Shown here: positions 39,510 through 64,000 of the stretch, piece after piece
Numbering within the stretch: the stretch's first letter is position 1
Layout: each line of letters starts with the position of its first letter
Source of the DNA: Candidatus Daviesbacteria bacterium
Lineage (GTDB): Bacteria > Patescibacteriota > Microgenomatia > Daviesbacterales > UBA10151
Length of the DNA: 64,000 nucleotides
NCBI GenBank assembly: GCA_016184225.1
Contig: JACPDA010000004.1
Location: 474,763-538,762, forward strand
Direction: 5' to 3'
Position numbers and translations under genes: made by a program
Notes under the pieces: generated by a model
Databases searched by the model: none
Told to the model about the DNA's origin: nothing
The model's input: only the letters and a program-made list of their open reading frames with translations

Positions 39510-39546
39510 CCCTAGGTGTCCTACCTGGGCCACCTTCCAGGTGGAT
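39510..39546 (+). repeat. structured repeat element, copy A (CCCTAGGT...GGTGTCCTACCT...CCACCT-TCC-AGGTGG hairpin)
   Basis: ~85% identical to 58763-58840, apart from a 38-nt hairpin insertion in copy B. Confidence 0.5.
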
Positions 39547-56663: not shown

Positions 56664-56737
56664 GGATCCGTAGCTCAGTTGGTTAGAGCGCTTCGTTCAC
56701 ATCGAAGAGGTCAGAAGTTCGAGTCTTCTCGGGTCCA
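56664..56737 (+). tRNA. tRNA-Val (anticodon CAC)
   Basis: Manual fold. Acceptor GGATCCG/CGGGTCC (7 bp, one G-U). D-arm GCTC-AGTTGGTTA-GAGC. Anticodon arm CTTCG-TTCACAT-CGAAG with CAC at positions 34-36. T-arm AGAAG-TTCGAGT-CTTCT. Discriminator A; CCA not encoded. Confidence 0.85.
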
Positions 56738-56963
56738 CTTTTAGGGATTCTCCGGAATCCTGCGTAGGCCTGCTCTGCCCGCCTAGCCGCGAGGCTGGCA
56801 AAGCCCTGATTGTACTCCACAATTTTGAACTTTTCTTCGAAAAGTTCGTTTTTCTTTTTCTTGTAAGTTTCAGAATCTGTAACTTGGTCTAAGTAACCAT
56901 CCAAGCATATAAATCTGAACATTAATCTTAACTGAAATAAGTTGTGGTATAGTTCAGTAACAG

Positions 56964-57557
56964 ATGGCTATAGTTATTTCAGCAGATGAGATTAAAAAGG
57001 AATTGAAAGGTTACACTCCTAACCTTGCAGAAAAGTTTCATGCTGAATCTGCAAAAATGGCTGATCAAGAATTCGAAAAAGAAATTAAGAATACCTCGTA
57101 TAAAGAGATAATTTTAGTCTGCGGCGGATCGGCTTCTGGAAAAAGTGAGTTTTTAGCTACCCAACTAGCTGATAGGGAGAGCGTAATTTTCGATGGTACC
57201 TTATCCTCAACAAAAAGAGCAGAAAGAAAACTTAAAAAAATTATTAAAGAGAGTAAAACGCCGATAATTTACGCAGTAATACCGGATGATTTAAAAAGAG
57301 CTTTCATTGCATTCTTAAGGAGAGATAGAAAATTTAGAGATACTCATTTTTACAGAACACATTCCAGTTCAAGGAAAACATTGCTTTGGATCGCCTTAAA
57401 TTATCCGAAAGTGGAAATAAATATTGTAGAGAGTTCCTACACAAGTTCCAAAGGACTTCAATTTATCAGGATAAAGCTTGATAACAGGCAAAAGCTAATT
57501 GAGTATTTGATTGGTTTGCAAATGACAGAAGATGATATAATTAAGCAAACAATATAA
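56964..57557 (+). CDS. P-loop kinase of the zeta-toxin / chloramphenicol-phosphotransferase-like superfamily
   Basis: Walker A LVCGGSASGKS at residue ~50, then ESVIFDGTL (the Asp-after-P-loop arrangement of zeta/CPT kinases); 197 aa. Confidence 0.55.
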   Translation: MAIVISADEIKKELKGYTPNLAEKFHAESAKMADQEFEKEIKNTSYKEIILVCGGSASGKSEFLATQLADRESVIFDGTLSSTKRAERKLKKIIKESKTPIIYAVIPDDLKRAFIAFLRRDRKFRDTHFYRTHSSSRKTLLWIALNYPKVEINIVESSYTSSKGLQFIRIKLDNRQKLIEYLIGLQMTEDDIIKQTI

Positions 57558-57572
57558 ACATAAACCCCAATT

Positions 57573-57875
57573 ATGAAAAAAATATTCTATAAAACAAATC
57601 AGAATGATCCTCAGGTAAGAGCATATAAAGAAGCGGTTGAGAGAGGCAGACAAGATCACCATGTTGTATATAAGGATGATTCGTGGAGAGTAATTCGCGG
57701 TGATGCACAAAGACCACTAGAAACATTCAGCACACAAGAAGAAGCTATAAAACGAGCCAAATTAATTGCTAGAAGTCAAGGTACAGCAGTATATATACAT
57801 GGAGTTGATGGAAGAATTAGAGAAAGAGAAAGTTATGGAAATGATCCATTTCCTCCAAGAAACGTAACTCATTAA
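57573..57875 (+). CDS. DUF2188 domain protein
   Basis: HHVVYKDDSWRVIRGDAQRPLETFSTQEEAIKRAKLIARSQGTAVYIHGVDGRIRERESYGNDPFPP matches what I remember of the DUF2188 consensus. Confidence 0.6.
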   Translation: MKKIFYKTNQNDPQVRAYKEAVERGRQDHHVVYKDDSWRVIRGDAQRPLETFSTQEEAIKRAKLIARSQGTAVYIHGVDGRIRERESYGNDPFPPRNVTH

Positions 57876-57906
57876 GGTTTATTATTGTAAACCTGAAAGG
57901 AGAAAA

Positions 57907-57927
57907 CCGCGGACTTTCAGTCCGCGG
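57907..57927. terminator. bidirectional terminator hairpin between convergent genes
   Basis: CCGCGGACT-TTC-AGTCCGCGG perfect 9-bp GC-rich stem. On the minus strand it is followed by TTTTCTCCTTTC. A second hairpin GGTTTA-N6-TAAACC lies at 57876-57893. Confidence 0.5.
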
Positions 57928-58150
57928 AAGTCTATAAAAATCGCGCGCATTGTGCTTTCTGCCTTTTCAAAAAATAAAGACGTGGCCGAGGGCCAATAGA
58001 GCGAGGTTGTCCTGCCTGCCGGCAAGGCAGTGATTACAGGTTTAGGTAGAAAACAGATAGAGCTGGACGCGAGCGACGCCTACATCGATTGAAATTTCGT
58101 TCGGATTTGTCGATATAGGTCCACAGATTGGGATTTTGGATAGTTAAGGC

Positions 58151-58681
58151 TCAAAATTGTGGTAATTGCCTTTGGTGGGCAATCTGTTTCAGGGCTTTCT
58201 TTGTGTATGTGTTTAGTCCATAGACCCCGGAGAGTAGATTGATTGCTGAATCAACAAATGCTGGTAGCCAATTAACTCCGGTGCCGAGTCTCTCCTCCAG
58301 ATTTAAAGACTCTGCTCTCATCATCCTCACAACATCCAGTGAAGTAATTCTTGATCTCCTGGCTATACCGAAGGCTTTTTCTAATGATCCCTCTGCCTCC
58401 GCTTTATTCATTTGAGCTCCTGGAAATTCTACATTATGGCCAAATGTCTCGGCCAATACTACGGATTGGTCTTGTCTCCAACCTTCTGCAGCTTTATTGA
58501 AAGCTATCAACCCTGTTCTTTCCCACCACTGCCTGGTTGGAGCGGGTACTTTTACTTGTACTTGTTCTCCTGCAGGTTTTCTAGACCTCCTCGGCCGCAG
58601 AGTCTGTTTACCAGTGTCTAAGTTTGTCACCAGTTCCATACCCATACCTTCAAATGATCCCTGACCCTCTTTTCCTACCAT
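58151..58681 (-). CDS. hypothetical protein with anomalously high GC (~45%) relative to neighbours
   Basis: 176-aa ORF with no motif recognised. Composition is visibly G+C richer than the flanking ~30-35% GC genes. Confidence 0.5.
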   Translation of the reverse strand: MVGKEGQGSFEGMGMELVTNLDTGKQTLRPRRSRKPAGEQVQVKVPAPTRQWWERTGLIAFNKAAEGWRQDQSVVLAETFGHNVEFPGAQMNKAEAEGSLEKAFGIARRSRITSLDVVRMMRAESLNLEERLGTGVNWLPAFVDSAINLLSGVYGLNTYTKKALKQIAHQRQLPQF

Positions 58682-58762
58682 ATGCTAATTATACCTTATT
58701 TTATCTTCTCTGATCAAGAAACATTATTTAAATCATTTGCCACACCATATATTTAACATTAT

Positions 58763-58840
58763 CCCTAGGTTTGAAGCTATCCAACCCCTGGGGTTGGAAT
58801 TTGTTTTGGTGTCCTATCTAAGCCACCTCCCAGGTGGGAT
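58763..58840 (+). repeat. structured repeat element, copy B (as 39510-39546 plus an inserted CCAACCCC-T-GGGGTTGG hairpin)
   Basis: CCCTAGGT...[38-nt insert]...GGTGTCCTATCTAAGCCACCT-CCC-AGGTGG; lies in the 237-nt gap between two minus-strand genes. Confidence 0.5.
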
Positions 58841-58918
58841 TGGGGTTACGTAATTTATAAAATCTTTTGTTCTGTTTGGACTGTAGTATCTAGACATAAT
58901 TAATTTTCTTTATAAATA

Positions 58919-59392
58919 TTATCTTTTCTTCTTTTTAGATACCCTTTTCTTTGTCTTTGTAGTTTTTGAAGTAGGCTGTGGAGAAGTATCAGCTATAGGT
59001 GCTTGCGTACCTTCAATAAAAGCTTGATCAATATCATATTCTGTTATGCCTTTAAACCCATTCTTTTGACATAAGTTATAAATTAATCCAACAATTTTTC
59101 TTTTTATATTTGCCGGGGATTGATTTGGATCATTTATTTGTTCATATAAGTTACTAATCTGTTTGCGGGTTTCTTTATCTTTATGAAAAGTTATTGAAAC
59201 TTTATTAAGTGATCTCCTAAACTCAGATGAAGCATAATCTCCACGAAAAGTCATTAAATCTCTTATAGCTTCATTTTTAGTCCTTTTTTCAAAATCTCTT
59301 TTACCAACAAACCATATTACAAGTCCCGCGACTAACGGGCCAACTAATCCTTGTATTAAAATACCTATAAAATTATTATCCCAACCATTCAT
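58919..59392 (-). CDS. hypothetical membrane-anchored protein with a lysine-rich C-terminal tail
   Basis: One N-terminal TM helix (FIGILIQGLVGPLVAGLVIWFVG); C-terminus TKTKKRVSKKKKR. Its start overlaps the stop of the upstream GIY-YIG gene by 4 nt. Confidence 0.5.
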   Translation of the reverse strand: MNGWDNNFIGILIQGLVGPLVAGLVIWFVGKRDFEKRTKNEAIRDLMTFRGDYASSEFRRSLNKVSITFHKDKETRKQISNLYEQINDPNQSPANIKRKIVGLIYNLCQKNGFKGITEYDIDQAFIEGTQAPIADTSPQPTSKTTKTKKRVSKKKKR

Positions 59393-59754
59393 ATTAAATT
59401 TACAACGATCGGTTGGGCAGCGGGAGACCTTTCTCCTATTAATGGACTGTAACTATCAAACAAATAAGCTTCTATGCCATCTCTAGATTGTTTATCAACA
59501 ATAGCCCATGTTACCTTCAATTGACCGTATGTTCCATACCGAGTTATTTCTGGGTTATTTTTATGCTCCTGTAATCTTAATCCAATATGACCTTGTCCAA
59601 CCCTAATAACTTTTGCTCCGCCTGCACCTACATACCAAATTATATATACACCTTCTTTACTCAGGAAATAAGGGGCGTTCAGGTTTAATCGCAGGAGGTC
59701 AAACCATTGATTATTATTTGAATTCTTTACCCAATGTACATTAAGACTTTGCAT
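59389..59754 (-). CDS. small GIY-YIG nuclease-domain protein (YhbQ/COG2827-like)
   Basis: GVYIIWYVG...KVIRVGQGHIGLRLQEHKN and a later ...RDGIEAYLFDSYSPLIGE fit the GIY / YIG / Arg / Glu core. Confidence 0.55.
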   Translation of the reverse strand: MQSLNVHWVKNSNNNQWFDLLRLNLNAPYFLSKEGVYIIWYVGAGGAKVIRVGQGHIGLRLQEHKNNPEITRYGTYGQLKVTWAIVDKQSRDGIEAYLFDSYSPLIGERSPAAQPIVVNLI

Positions 59755-59934
59755 AACTCGTTAATCTATTATAACCGAAGTTTTAAACTTTGTATTTAGT
59801 TTTTTGTATAGCTTCCATTTTTATCCTCCACAATTTTAATTTCTTCCGGCATTAGGCCGTAGAGTTTATAAGCAGAGCTTCTCAGCTCGCTTACAGCTTG
59901 CTGATAAACTAATTGATATATCTTCTTTTATCCT

Positions 59935-62900
59935 TTAAATATTCTTAACTTGTGCATAAAATTTATTCTTCTGACAAAGACTTTTTACAAAATCTGCATT
60001 AGAAACTTTATCTTTAGGTACACCCACATTAAAGTAGAGGCAAAAGACTAAATCGTCTATAAGGTCTTTGATCTCCTTTTGTTTCTCAAAGTCAATTACA
60101 GGAAAGGATATCAGGTCCGATAGCATAATTGTTTTGTTTTCTAATTCGAGACCATCTTGGCCATACTTTGCCTCAATAACTTTCTTTACCAGAGTGAAAT
60201 CTTTCTTAATAGGCAGCTCTATTGACTCCATATCCTTTTCCAATATTAGTTTGTTTACTTCAACGCTAACTTTGTCAAACTTTTGAACCATTATTTTTGA
60301 AAAATCAACAAAGTCTGACAATAGAATTCTCTCTAACTTTAGGAGACCTCCAGTAAGCCTAATAGTTTCTTCCTTAATGTGTTGGTTTTGATCAGTTATT
60401 TTTGGGATTCTTACAAATTCCTTAATTGCTTTTATTGGAATTAAGAATTCTTTCTCTTGCTCATTTTGGAGGTTTTTTAGAATTAATTTGTTTATAGGAG
60501 AGTTCAATAAAGAAAGGAGATAAAAAATCTCTTCCCTATTATCTGAACAAATAATTGATGCCTTTCCCATATAAAAAATAATGTGATGATCAGTAAAATA
60601 AAATTTATCCGGATTTTTAACACTCCAGACAATTTTGTATTGTTGATCTAATGTAATATACCCTTGATTATTTTGGGTAAGTTTAATTTTATTTCTATCT
60701 TTTGGATAAAACGCTTTCGGTATAAAACTAGAATAATTATAAAAAGATTTGAAATCCAACAATTCGTAAGACTCTTCACTATTGTTAATTGTTGTTATAT
60801 ATTTAGGATTTAAGACAAATCCAATATCAAAATAGAATCTACTGTTAAAATTGTGTCTTGCTAAAACATGGTTATAATAGATAGAAATTTCTTCACTTTT
60901 TCTCTTGTATTCAATATGGAAATCTAAATATTCCTTATTCTGTTGAATGAAATTCCAATTTGCGAGGTTTTGAAGAAGTTGTGATTGTAAGATTTTATTT
61001 TTTGTTGTCTTTTCTTTCCGAGCTATTTTTCTGAAGGTTTCCTCAATATTTTCACCTGAACCTAAATGATTCCAAATCTCCACTTCCTGCAAATCTCTCG
61101 GCCTATTTTTCGAAACAATCAGAATCAAACTTGACGTAGCAATTGGCTTATTCTGTTTAAGTCCCCTTCCTAAGAACATCTTGCCGCTAAAGGTGATAAT
61201 TTTTTCAATAGTTGTAAACCGAGCAAGGTGATACCTAATTACATCCAAATCGCCCGATGTTAGTACGGTCTGAGGAATGATAAAACAAAGCTTTCCATTA
61301 TCTTTTAATAAAGCTAGTCCTAGAGCAATAAAAAATGCGTAAAAATTTGGTTTTGGTGAATACCTTTTCTGTCTTTCAGAAACACTATGTAGATTTAATC
61401 CATAAACATCACTTAATTTAACCTTACCTTGTTTCATTAGGCTGAAAATTAGAATACCCTGTTTTGAGCACTCGTTATAAGAAATGTATGGTGGGTTACC
61501 AATTACGTAGTCAAATCGTCTTCGTGATGGGCGCATACTTTGTTTCATATCCGCCAGGTCACTCTTTTCTCGCATATAACTTTCAAATTCAAAATCTAAC
61601 TTTCTACTATCAAACAAGACTTGTTGACCACCTATAACATCGATATCATTTATAGTATTTTTTAATCCAGCGTCTATAAACTCTGCAATCGAATCCTTGG
61701 TCCAAAAAACTTTTATTTTCTTATCAATTGGATTGTTGTATTTCTCGTTAATAATAAGCGGTAGCATTCGCATTAAAATATTCATCTCGGCCAAATAGAG
61801 TGGGAATTCTTCAATATCTAATCCAAAGACGTTATTATTTATCAATTCCTCAATTTTTCTTGAGGTATCTTCTGATCCGTTAGGTACCGCATTTAAAATT
61901 TGATCTGTTGCACTATATAAGAAAGTCCCACTGCCACAAGACGGATCTATTATGGAAATATAGTCTCCGTCGGGATCATGATCCAATCGTTTTATTAAAC
62001 TATCTGGTGTATATCCAACTTGTTCTAGCATAAAGTTAACGATAGCTGGATCTGTAAAATACTGTCCTTTCTTGGATTCTTCATATAATTCTTTTAGGTA
62101 ATTTTCATAAATATAGCCAAAGATTTCATTTCTAACGTTTGCAAAATTGTATTTTTTGATGAAGATGAAGATATCAAGCCATGGAGATACATCAGAAAGG
62201 CTATTTTCAACCCTATGGTAGAGTTCTTGAATTTTGTCTTTGATAAACGCCTGCTCTTTAGTAAATGGTCTATATATATTTTTCGAAATATTTGCAGAAA
62301 TTCCCTCAATAATCCCCAGAATATCTTTATATCTTTTTTGTTTCAAAAACTGATGAATCTTTTCAACGAAACTCTCAAATTCTGTTGCGAAATCGTCAAA
62401 CTCGTTATCGACCAATGTCTTATACAGGATAAACTGTATAATATAGGCATAAGTAAGCTCGATTGCTTTCTTTTCACTTAATTTATTGTCTGAACTTTCA
62501 AGATACCCTTCAATCTTGAGTTTATTTTTAAAGCCTTCGATAAGCTTAGTTATATCTTCAAAGAAAAGTTGCCTGTTGTTATCAACGTGCAGTTTGGTTT
62601 CTTTGAGAAGCGCTAACTGCCCCACCTTTTCAAAAAATGATAGGTAATAAAACTCCGGCTTGATATACTCCTTCCAAAAGGTGATAAACAACTGTGTTTT
62701 ATCGAGCATATCCCTAAGCGTGAAGATACGATATACATTGTTGTTATAAAAACGCCAAGTGAAACCATCGGTTAAAATACCGTAGTGTTTGTCGAAATCC
62801 TTTTGGTAGTTAAAGAGTTGTTTTTCACCAACTTGAATATTTTTATAGCACTCAACTTCAATAGGAATTGCTATTTCAGGATTGATATAGATATAAAAAT

Positions 62901-63117
62901 CTGCCCTACGTTTCTCTTTAGCATTCTTCTCATGTATAAATTCATTCCTTCTATCTTGATTATTTGTAGATAATTTGCCCTCTTTCAAGCTAAAAAGATC
63001 ATCAGATGACAATATATCTTTAACGAAACTTTGAACGCCGGTACCAACTTCTTGCTTTTGATAATAGTCTTTTTCTTGATTCCATTTCCTTTTTAGTCCT
63101 GATATTTTTAAACTCAT
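59935..63117 (-). CDS. type IIL/IIG restriction-modification fusion enzyme (MmeI-like): N-terminal PD-(D/E)xK nuclease + gamma-class N6-adenine methyltransferase + target-recognition domain
   Basis: N-terminal RADFYIYINPEIAIPIEVECYK (D...E.E..K) and YGILTDGFTWRFY; MTase motif I IIDPSCGSGTFL; motif IV DYVIGNPPYISYN; ~400-aa C-terminal region; 1060 aa. Confidence 0.75.
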   Translation of the reverse strand: MSLKISGLKRKWNQEKDYYQKQEVGTGVQSFVKDILSSDDLFSLKEGKLSTNNQDRRNEFIHEKNAKEKRRADFYIYINPEIAIPIEVECYKNIQVGEKQLFNYQKDFDKHYGILTDGFTWRFYNNNVYRIFTLRDMLDKTQLFITFWKEYIKPEFYYLSFFEKVGQLALLKETKLHVDNNRQLFFEDITKLIEGFKNKLKIEGYLESSDNKLSEKKAIELTYAYIIQFILYKTLVDNEFDDFATEFESFVEKIHQFLKQKRYKDILGIIEGISANISKNIYRPFTKEQAFIKDKIQELYHRVENSLSDVSPWLDIFIFIKKYNFANVRNEIFGYIYENYLKELYEESKKGQYFTDPAIVNFMLEQVGYTPDSLIKRLDHDPDGDYISIIDPSCGSGTFLYSATDQILNAVPNGSEDTSRKIEELINNNVFGLDIEEFPLYLAEMNILMRMLPLIINEKYNNPIDKKIKVFWTKDSIAEFIDAGLKNTINDIDVIGGQQVLFDSRKLDFEFESYMREKSDLADMKQSMRPSRRRFDYVIGNPPYISYNECSKQGILIFSLMKQGKVKLSDVYGLNLHSVSERQKRYSPKPNFYAFFIALGLALLKDNGKLCFIIPQTVLTSGDLDVIRYHLARFTTIEKIITFSGKMFLGRGLKQNKPIATSSLILIVSKNRPRDLQEVEIWNHLGSGENIEETFRKIARKEKTTKNKILQSQLLQNLANWNFIQQNKEYLDFHIEYKRKSEEISIYYNHVLARHNFNSRFYFDIGFVLNPKYITTINNSEESYELLDFKSFYNYSSFIPKAFYPKDRNKIKLTQNNQGYITLDQQYKIVWSVKNPDKFYFTDHHIIFYMGKASIICSDNREEIFYLLSLLNSPINKLILKNLQNEQEKEFLIPIKAIKEFVRIPKITDQNQHIKEETIRLTGGLLKLERILLSDFVDFSKIMVQKFDKVSVEVNKLILEKDMESIELPIKKDFTLVKKVIEAKYGQDGLELENKTIMLSDLISFPVIDFEKQKEIKDLIDDLVFCLYFNVGVPKDKVSNADFVKSLCQKNKFYAQVKNI

Positions 63118-63152: not shown

Positions 63153-63354
63153 GGGTCTAGGGGATAGGGTATAGTTGTTATAAATACAATACATGTCAAG
63201 GGGGTTAAAATAGATCATCTTAAGGCTACTTATTCGGGTTATATTTGTATTCCAACTTAGAATGTGGTAGAATATTGTCACAAAGACCCTGTTTCCGAAT
63301 TGTCACCGTATGGTGCGCGTTCCAAACTAACGTTTGGATAGGGACAGGGTCGAA

Positions 63355-63943
63355 TCATTTAAAATCCCAAATATCTTCAATTCTTTTTACTTCCTCGAAT
63401 TTATGAAGATAATCTTTATTTTTACCTACAAAGGTTGCATGTATACTACCGGCTATTACATCTGCAAGCTGAATTAAAGTATTCTGCTTTGAATCGGCGA
63501 ATTTTAAATCGCTAAATATTTTGTTATAATTGGTTACGTAGAGATTTTTCTCCTCGCTTATCAAATTTTAACTTAGCCTTTTTGATAAACCCTTTACTCT
63601 GTTTAAGAACCTGCATAATGATATAGTTATAAAAATCTTCCTTATAATTTCGTAGTCTCGGACTATGAATGATCTCTTTCCTGACAACTATTGCTCGTAT
63701 GCGAAATTTAAAATTCCTAACTGTTTCAATAAATTGTTTCTTAAAATTTTTATCCATTTTGTTAAATTTGAATTCATAATAATCTGAAACTTTTAATTTT
63801 CTTCGTAGTTCCTTAATTGCAAGTGAAGTTTTCTCAGCTTCTAGCGGGTCATCAAATACCGCAAGCGCTATAACAAAGCACTTGCTTGAACCTTTTTCCA
63901 GTTTAAATCCAGGATCTCCGGAATCATCAATGAAAACTAGCAT
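63355..63943 (-). pseudogene. DUF3800 family gene interrupted by a frameshift (two overlapping ORFs 63524-63979 and 63355-63564)
   Basis: N-terminal MLVFIDDSGDPG... (the DUF3800 start) in one frame and C-terminal ...SKQNTLIQLADVIAGSIH (the DUF3800 QLAD motif) in another. The frames switch near the T5/A5 run at 63546-63550. Likely true start is the ATG at 63943. Confidence 0.55.
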
Positions 63944-63977
63944 TTTCTTGCTTAAGCGCGAAGCGCGAGCTTTGCTC

Positions 63978-64000
63978 ATTATTGCACAGAGGATGGTTAG
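63978..64000 (-). promoter_or_regulatory. conserved promoter/leader cassette, copy 2 (upstream of the DUF3800 gene)
   Basis: ATTATTGCACAGAGGATGGTTAG on +, with one mismatch to copy 1. The downstream leader TTAAGCAAGAAAATG is also shared, interrupted by a CGCGCTT x2 insert. Confidence 0.5.

Follow-up and report, generated by a model that had tools for sequence, protein, structure and literature searches.

Do three small neighbouring genes beside a restriction-modification (R-M) enzyme form one functional module, and what kind of system would they then represent? This question is raised by a locus in a stretch of 64,000 nucleotides (nt) from Candidatus Daviesbacteria bacterium (contig JACPDA010000004.1, positions 474,763 to 538,762), which was analysed as a whole and is called the window below. 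The initial annotation, made from the sequence alone, had described a three-gene minus-strand module consisting of a small GIY-YIG nuclease, a membrane-anchored protein with a lysine-rich tail and an orphan protein, here called A, B and C. All three open reading frames (ORFs) were found exactly where it had placed them, and two of them have exact database matches (C, HYU45_02965; B, HYU45_02970). Our comparisons firmly show that A and B constitute a conserved, self-promoted, translationally coupled two-gene cassette, and that this cassette resides repeatedly beside R-M or defence genes; C is a separate gene. The features on which this answer depends are as follows (aa, amino acids):

59389..59754, minus strand: gene A, a 121-aa protein with a predicted divergent GIY-YIG fold, first gene of the cassette
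58919..59392, minus strand: gene B, a 157-aa DUF6680 protein with a 4-nt overlap with A
59768..59773, minus strand: TATAAT, the -10 box serving A-B, 13 nt 5' of the A start codon
59935..63117, minus strand: Type IIG (Eco57I-type) R-M gene, 1060 aa, directly upstream of the cassette
58151..58681, minus strand: gene C, a 176-aa lineage-specific protein, outside the cassette

The A-B cassette and its place behind R-M genes

The pairing of the two genes was found from both sides. A metagenome scan starting from B gave 24 loci, 23 of them real, and A lay immediately upstream on the same strand in 22 of the 23; three further B homologues on long contigs (loci L154, L157 and L158) carry the pair as well. 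When the search started from A, homologues from the candidate phyla radiation (CPR), on Gottesmanbacteria-type and other contigs, were found with DUF6680 directly downstream and with the same overlap of 4 nt. This overlap is ATGA in the window, in agreement with the initial annotation, and the ATGA (-4) junction is the commonest one, present in most loci. Adjacency, order, strand and coupling are therefore conserved across divergent homologues, and from the B side the pairing is near-obligatory. The sequences of A carry the same signal. All 21 unique B-linked A sequences fall within one clade of 22 members, the extra member probably being a contig that ends right after A. B-linked A proteins are 46-100% identical to the A of the window and those without B at most 49%, with the sole exception of a 77% identical sequence on the same contig, which probably ends right after A. 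Among the matches listed, DUF6680 stands beside A in the CPR-type clade only. As far as we found, an obligate pairing of DUF6680 with a GIY-YIG-fold gene is undescribed.

The cassette also carries its own expression signal. Within 30 nt upstream of A, a perfect TATAAT was present in 10 of 17 A-B loci and a match of at least 5/6 in 16 of 17, compared with 2% and 18.5% of control windows, respectively. The distance from the end of the box to the A start codon is 3-13 nt in 16 of the 17 loci, and the box is often TG-extended. Because this -10 box is conserved so close to the start of A, the cassette possesses a promoter of its own, and its mRNA would have almost no leader or none; the -10 element proposed for A in the window (TATAAT, 59773-59768 on the minus strand) was upheld by comparison with the other loci and the controls. 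DNA similarity among the cassettes extends from about 60-120 nt ahead of A into the B tail, where it ends; terminal repeats or a conserved 3' flank were looked for and none was found. The cassette is single-copy where this could be checked, and no relatives of A or B were present in IMG/VR, the cultured-phage collection or the PLSDB plasmids.

The initial annotation had placed the genes next to an R-M enzyme, and this adjacency was confirmed: the product of 59935..63117 matched PF07669 (E=4.9e-20) and the PADLOC models REase_MTase_IIG and MTase. The same kind of neighbour recurs elsewhere. Upstream sequence of 1.5 kb or more was available for 12 independent A-B contexts, and in 7 of these we found same-strand R-M or related defence genes just upstream (position -1 or -2):

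Window: Type IIG
L001/L131: Type IIG with a PLD/SNF2 gene
L133: Type III Mod and Res
L134/135: D12/Dam methylase
L141: Type ISP
L144/147: AAA_21 ATPase and ResIII protein
L154: RhuM, Type I-like HsdR and fused HsdM/S

In L005, an N6_N4 methylase and a LexA-like gene lie about 2 kb from A-B, and in summary scans of all A-B neighbours DNA methylases and restriction domains were the commonest families.

The 180 nt between the R-M stop codon and A in the window hold a further trace of such genes, a dead reading frame ending in ...AYKLYGLMPEEIKIVEDKNGSYTKN*:

59796..59927, minus strand: putative relic of an Eco57I-type R-M C-terminus, last ~43 codons, recognised by translation

L001, L005 and L130 have related fragments (...LYSLTPKQIEIVK* and ...EEIKIVEGKN...) in the corresponding position, so that a relic stands upstream of A in four loci. 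Its database matches were all weak (tblastn E=2), and they map to the very end of the C-terminus in Eco57I-type proteins of Lactococcus (...LYKKYGLNPEEINFVEEK...*). Because the window relic lies between the present R-M gene and the A promoter, it suggests that the R-M gene has been replaced. The cassette may thus have arisen first behind an Eco57I-type gene, the upstream R-M gene having since been replaced or lost repeatedly while A-B was kept. We propose that the cassette is accessory and horizontally mobile, and that its ancestral and recurrent site is the 3' end of R-M or defence operons.

Predicted properties of A and B and the wider A family

Gene A belongs to a large family that standard models miss. 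It matched no Pfam or PADLOC model at E<=1, its best NCBIfam (E=0.2) and PHROG (E=0.093) matches were insignificant, and a sequence-profile search of the PDB gave no GIY-YIG match and nothing significant. Homologues of A form 118 clusters at 90% identity, and the family comprises 1,436 representatives at 50% identity (E<=1e-3), none with a Pfam domain; nearly all are stand-alone proteins of 115-130 aa. The AlphaFold model of A, built on 49 homologues, has a predicted local distance difference test score (pLDDT) of 95.4 and a beta-beta-alpha-alpha-beta-alpha core (beta 34-43, beta 46-56, alpha 57-65, alpha 68-75, beta 78-85 and alpha 88-102), preceded by a conserved Trp-rich extension of about 33 residues at the N-terminus. 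In a Foldseek search against the PDB, the top matches of this model were UvrC GIY-YIG domains (prob 1.0, E 6e-3, template modelling score 0.60 on the target), followed by the GIY-YIG defence nuclease PD-T4-3; Hpy188I came far lower, with poor scores. The annotation of A as a small GIY-YIG nuclease was thus borne out at the level of the fold, by structure prediction and not by any profile match.

Conservation, scored over 49 diverse homologues, is consistent with this fold. G35, Y37, G53, G55 and E95 are invariant, and V36, R51, V52, Q54, R60 and H64 are kept in at least 90% of homologues. By manual motif alignment, Y37 would be the GIY tyrosine, R60 the helix arginine and E95 the metal ligand; R60 and E95 were equated with UvrC R39 and E76 through this alignment and the fold match, not through residue-level superposition. 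On the predicted structure, A represents a new, divergent GIY-YIG-fold family, and because the GIY Tyr, the helix Arg, the His and the metal-binding Glu appear to be kept, it is most likely a metal-dependent endonuclease. This would be the first structural assignment for a family of about 1,400 clusters that has no Pfam model.

Gene B encodes a DUF6680 protein (PF20385, residues 9-123, E=1.2e-9, 38.5 bits against a gathering cut-off of 23.2), and nearly all listed B homologues carry the precomputed PF20385 label. A single strongly hydrophobic segment lies at the N-terminus (residues 8-26, Kyte-Doolittle 2.30), with a K/R-rich stretch after it; the positive-inside rule would orient B N-out/C-in, with the helical DUF6680 domain in the cytoplasm. 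The AlphaFold model (pLDDT 79) consists of a long membrane-spanning helix and four shorter ones (4-47, 56-68, 73-86, 93-110 and 118-126), and residues 135-157 are disordered. Residues ~40-132 are very strongly conserved (EAIRDLMTYRGDY...FRRSLNKVSITFH...TEYDIDQSFPE). The membrane anchor described by the initial annotation therefore stands as one N-terminal helix, and the basic tail is real in the window (isoelectric point 11.3). However, the lysine tail is not a feature of the family, because a tail with at least 25% K+R was present in just 29% of homologues and 14 of 118 have almost no tail. Foldseek with the B model found generic helical bundles alone in the PDB (E>0.4), a sequence-profile search of the PDB found nothing, and the only PADLOC match was an insignificant one to Csn2 (E=0.0066). 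DUF6680 is a family without described function, of which we found no mention in the literature searched; the A-B cassette gives it its first genomic context.

A-family genes also occur far beyond this clade. A scan with a degenerate DNA pattern over one genome per species, a census that is a sample, found at least 119 A-family loci in many phyla. In at least 13 loci of at least 6 phyla, a K+-channel-like protein of about 317 aa (Ion_trans_2, GYGD filter) is encoded directly upstream on the same strand:

Channel-A pair loci: L013, L020, L022, L026, L031, L043, L062, L066, L094, L110, L117, L119, L121

The spacing of these pairs is -4 to 59 nt, the filter reads GYGD, GYGH or GYGN, and the channel carries an uncharacterised C-terminal domain of about 200 aa. 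That this domain might be a hidden DUF6680 was ruled out (hhalign prob 0.5). Because two non-homologous membrane partners, DUF6680 and the K+ channel, have been recruited beside A, a functional link between A and the membrane is favoured over chance. PADLOC gave no match for these channels or for the other partners of A, among which is a small convergent ORF of about 90 aa (at least 6 loci). A domain of the A family also forms the C-terminus (659-775) of P0387, a 779-aa fusion with a caspase (Peptidase_C14) and TPR repeats; such an architecture is typical of conflict-system effectors.

Distant A-family genes, about 41-46% identical, are carried convergently with a transposase of the IS1595 family (DDE_Tnp_IS1595). 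A Thalassobaculaceae genome (OY729512.2) holds at least 7 copies of an element of about 1.95 kb with A and the transposase. The ends of the element are inverted repeats of about 17 bp (GGGAATTATATAGATGA / GGGGATTATATACTTGA), with 7-8-bp AT-rich target duplications. IS1595 elements were located as follows:

L049: 342-2291 and 2299-4248
L060: 4040-6004
L028: 3013-4962
L034: 1432-3381
L025: 2715-7039

One element copy contains a nested DDE_3 element. We found no paper on A-family cargo among IS1595 passenger genes in the literature searched. That the same small nuclease domain is both the cargo of an active IS1595-type element and the partner of K+-channel-like proteins could hint at a general role.

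Gene C and the variable island

Gene C was the third member of the module as initially annotated. It has 14 homologue clusters only, is clearly under constraint and gave nothing significant in Pfam, NCBIfam, PADLOC and PHROGs scans. Of the other A-B loci examined, about 30 in all, none had a C homologue, and C homologues in L008, L009 and L010 have no A-B nearby. Failure of the three genes to co-occur elsewhere had been set beforehand as the outcome that would speak against the module, and since the trio does not co-occur elsewhere, the three-gene reading is refuted. The gene order in L008 is IleRS, FtsW, L21, L27, ParB, signal peptidase, tRNA-Val and C, which is the order of the window minus a kinase/DUF2188 insertion and minus A-B. 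In L008, C is followed by genes of toxin-antitoxin type (HicA, DUF433/DUF5615) and a PDDEXK nuclease. A consensus scan placed a promoter-like site (10/12) 6 nt before the C start codon. C is thus a separate lineage-specific gene with its own putative promoter, flanking a variable site at tRNA-Val. The features of this side of the locus are:

58688..58717, minus strand: promoter-like site of gene C, TTGATC-18 nt-TATAAT, a 10/12 consensus match only
58780..58798, no strand assigned: 8-bp palindromic hairpin in the B-C spacer, with a T-run confined to the plus strand
58808..58837, plus strand: 30-nt intergenic repeat (GGTGTCCTAYCT..GCCACCTYCCAGGTGG), second copy at 39515-39544
56664..56738, plus strand: tRNA-Val(CAC), found by ARAGORN and Rfam

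A 108-aa protein without Pfam match is encoded near all three C homologues (L008:345-671, L009:1271-1597 and L010:1787-2113), and HicA-type toxin genes lie near two of them (L008 and L009). By size and position, no 108-aa-like gene stands beside the C of the window, and no homology search was made for it. Many short-read contigs of same-strain assemblies that bear the cassette (L159-L162) stop about 250 nt past C, at ~57900-58150, which may reflect strain-level variation at the C/DUF2188 junction.

The 237-nt spacer between B and C had been described as structured and as containing a repeat. Its folding did not exceed that of shuffled sequences (z = 0.26 and 0.09), and no Rfam family was found in 57700-60100, so the claim of structure fell. 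The repeat is there: the window has two copies of the 30-nt element, 87% identical over 30 nt (blastn) and both intergenic, and its core motif occurs twice in the window, a count reached by 2 of 100 shuffles. The element carries a CCACCTyCCAGGTGG hairpin, and L005 has one that resembles it (CACACCTGGAGGGTGT) on the downstream side of B.

The tRNA-Val gene forms the border between conserved core genes (FtsW, L21, L27, ParB and signal peptidase) and a variable island that holds the cassette; beyond about 58 kb, the guanine-cytosine (GC) content falls and the GC skew reverses. On the other flank of the trio, the annotated kinase/DUF2188 pair was recovered as a P-loop kinase-like gene with a weak zeta-toxin match and a DUF2188 gene, which is the PADLOC candidate PDC-S16 (E=2e-27) and also PHROG 3220. 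The pair occupies 56964-57875 on the plus strand, between tRNA-Val and C. It looks like an insertion at the tRNA-Val site, because it is missing at the corresponding site of L008. Together with the Type IIG R-M gene and DUF3800, the A-B pair and DUF2188/PDC-S16 lie within a small defence-type island beside tRNA-Val. A same-strain assembly that continues past the window has a split DUF3800 gene as the last of the block and polysaccharide-synthesis genes after it, and no integrase was seen there beyond the window. The DUF3800 gene (63355-63979, minus strand) is split into overlapping ORFs (63524-63979 and 63355-63564) with one half of the domain each, and the split is repeated in independent assemblies. 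There are two explanations for it, a pseudogene that has suffered a frameshift or programmed frameshifting. At the 3' end of the DUF3800 gene, directly adjoining it on the opposite strand, is an Rfam DUF3800-IX RNA motif (63285-63355, plus; 65.4 bits, gathering score 36.8).

Possible roles and relation to known systems

What could such a cassette do? The reading that we prefer, with confidence a little short of even, is that A-B acts as a second-line or back-up defence, or as an abortive-infection module, beside R-M systems. B would bind A and hold or control it at the inner face of the membrane, and a trigger, which could be phage entry, membrane perturbation or loss of the cassette, would free A to cut nucleic acid. 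This function is suggested by the gene neighbourhood. The defence-island architecture seen by the initial annotation has stood, as shown by the island itself and by R-M neighbours in unrelated loci, whereas abortive infection or defence as a function is still conjecture. A bolder and doubtful version would see in A-DUF6680 an undescribed anti-phage or R-M back-up system of Patescibacteria and some other uncultured bacteria, whose membrane protein holds the nuclease in a latent state until infection occurs. In wider terms, DUF6680, K+-channel-like, caspase-TPR and IS1595 contexts would all be places into which evolution has plugged one portable nuclease effector, the A family.

Several observations weigh against a defence role. 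Contact between A and B is purely conjectural, and the pair has no experimental or homology link to a known defence system. The GIY-YIG Pfam model PF01541 was not matched by A, and an hhalign comparison of the A profile with one PF01541 protein was not significant (prob 0.5). The position of the YIG tyrosine is held by R51 (RVGQG), which is conserved in at least 90% of homologues, and by the motif alignment G107 probably takes the usual Asn position and Q54 that of UvrC Lys32; given R51, G107 and Q54, the nuclease activity of A is a prediction only. In Hpy188I, the GIY Tyr63 is the general base, and the enzyme is active with Lys73 in place of the YIG Tyr (PMC3045582). The R51 substitution would accordingly be compatible with catalysis, because a basic residue works at this position in an active enzyme. 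Among the matches listed, most A-family genes of other phyla have no B, so A can act without it. Finally, A-B also lies among housekeeping genes, namely FtsA/FtsZ (L142), an ABC transporter (L157) and RNase J with DUF3800 (L158).

The rival that we take most seriously, although we judge it unlikely, is a toxin-antitoxin or addiction cassette, in which one product, A or B, is toxic and the other neutralises it, stabilising the island or the R-M locus. The small size of both genes, their overlap of 4 nt and the promoter of the cassette would suit it, as would their place in variable regions beside other toxin-antitoxin and R-M genes; B is almost never without A, as expected if B needs an antidote or partner, and other clades pair A with different small neighbours such as the convergent ORF of about 90 aa. 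However, known toxin and antitoxin families gave no match to A or to B, and a DNA-binding autoregulator domain is not evident. Moreover, A stands alone in most of the genomes sampled, which is awkward if A is the toxin, and its conserved catalytic residues are awkward if it is a mere antidote. An improbable alternative is that A is a selfish, free-standing nuclease of homing or transposon-accessory type, with B as a lineage-specific accessory and the R-M adjacency caused by insertion preference or hitch-hiking. GIY-YIG is the classic homing-endonuclease fold, A-family contexts are very heterogeneous across many phyla, an A-family gene is the cargo of the multi-copy, target-duplication-flanked IS1595-family element, and the 3'-end fragment of an R-M gene lies at the 5' flank of the cassette in several loci. 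Nevertheless, at about 120 aa, A lacks the separate DNA-binding domain that I-TevI-type enzymes need for site recognition, and the cassette is single-copy where checkable, has neither terminal repeats nor a conserved 3' flank, and has no matches in phage or plasmid collections.

We consider it slightly more improbable still that A-B is an R-M accessory factor cooperating directly with the upstream enzyme, for example by processing restriction products or as a nuclease that the R-M enzyme keeps latent, in the way that EcoprrI guards PrrC. It is favoured by the ancestral relic of an R-M C-terminus and by the same-strand position of the cassette at the 3' end of R-M operons, seen in at least 6 independent loci. 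Against it, partners of such unrelated types (IIG, III, ISP, I-like and orphan Dam) make a specific protein contact less likely, the cassette brings a conserved promoter of its own, and in L142, L157 and L158 it has no R-M gene nearby. Very little remains to be said for the last two rivals. A three-gene A-B-C system has in its favour the adjacency of the genes on one strand in this genome and in near-identical assemblies, but it is scarcely credible, since C is missing from all other A-B loci examined, its homologues occur without A-B, it has a promoter-like site of its own and is separated from B by 237 nt, and it keeps its position on the tRNA-Val side in a relative without A-B. Just as far-fetched is a housekeeping small GIY-YIG protein of the YhbQ/UPF0213 kind with chance neighbours. 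Its similar size (about 100-120 aa) and fold class would agree with A, but A has no PF01541 match at E<=1, is patchily distributed and absent from the corresponding site of L008, and lies in a low-GC island with reversed GC skew; A is not of that type, which the initial annotation had named as speaking against its reading.

With these alternatives weighed, it is reasonable to regard the two-gene cassette as a candidate for a defence-island system that would be new. Standard tools have been trained on cultured bacteria, and for this reason the defence systems of CPR/Patescibacteria are poorly covered by existing catalogues. A compact, self-promoted cassette of a predicted nuclease and a membrane protein, standing behind six kinds of R-M or defence operon, offers something concrete to clone and test. 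Should it prove to be no more than an addiction module or a selfish gene, its interest would be modest.

The statement of the initial annotation that the locus fits no recognised system agrees with our PADLOC scan, which gave no significant match for A, B or C; PADLOC-DB v2 has no component model for A or C, and for B the insignificant Csn2 match alone. With the GIY-YIG superfamily (UvrC N-terminal domain, Hpy188I, Eco29kI and PD-T4-3), A shares the predicted core and the Tyr/Arg/His/Glu set, and with Hpy188I a basic residue at the YIG Tyr position (Lys73 there, PMC3045582; R51 in A). It differs from the superfamily by that Arg, by the probable Gly for Asn and by the Gln for UvrC Lys32, as well as by its length of about 120 aa, its Trp-rich N-terminal extension, and the lack of a DNA-recognition domain and of a significant sequence match. 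From I-TevI-type homing endonucleases, A differs as a single domain of 121 aa without phage or IMG/VR matches. IS1595-family elements with passengers carry distant A-family genes convergently with the transposase, whereas the window cassette has no transposase, inverted repeats or conserved 3' flank. The architecture of A-B, with small genes that overlap and have a promoter of their own, would fit a Type II toxin-antitoxin system, but matches to families of toxins or antitoxins were absent. In the PrrC-EcoprrI locus, one specific Type Ic enzyme keeps the ATPase-linked anticodon nuclease PrrC latent as a back-up. Like PrrC-EcoprrI, A-B attaches a small nuclease gene, as predicted here, to R-M genes, and it differs by its many unrelated R-M types, its own promoter and its membrane partner. 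In Kiwa (KwaA/KwaB) and Zorya, a membrane protein is paired with a cytosolic effector that targets nucleic acid. A-B has no homology to them (PADLOC models miss A), B has a single membrane helix and the proteins are much smaller, but the cassette would share with both systems the logic of a membrane-anchored and a soluble, DNA-directed component, together with the location in defence islands.

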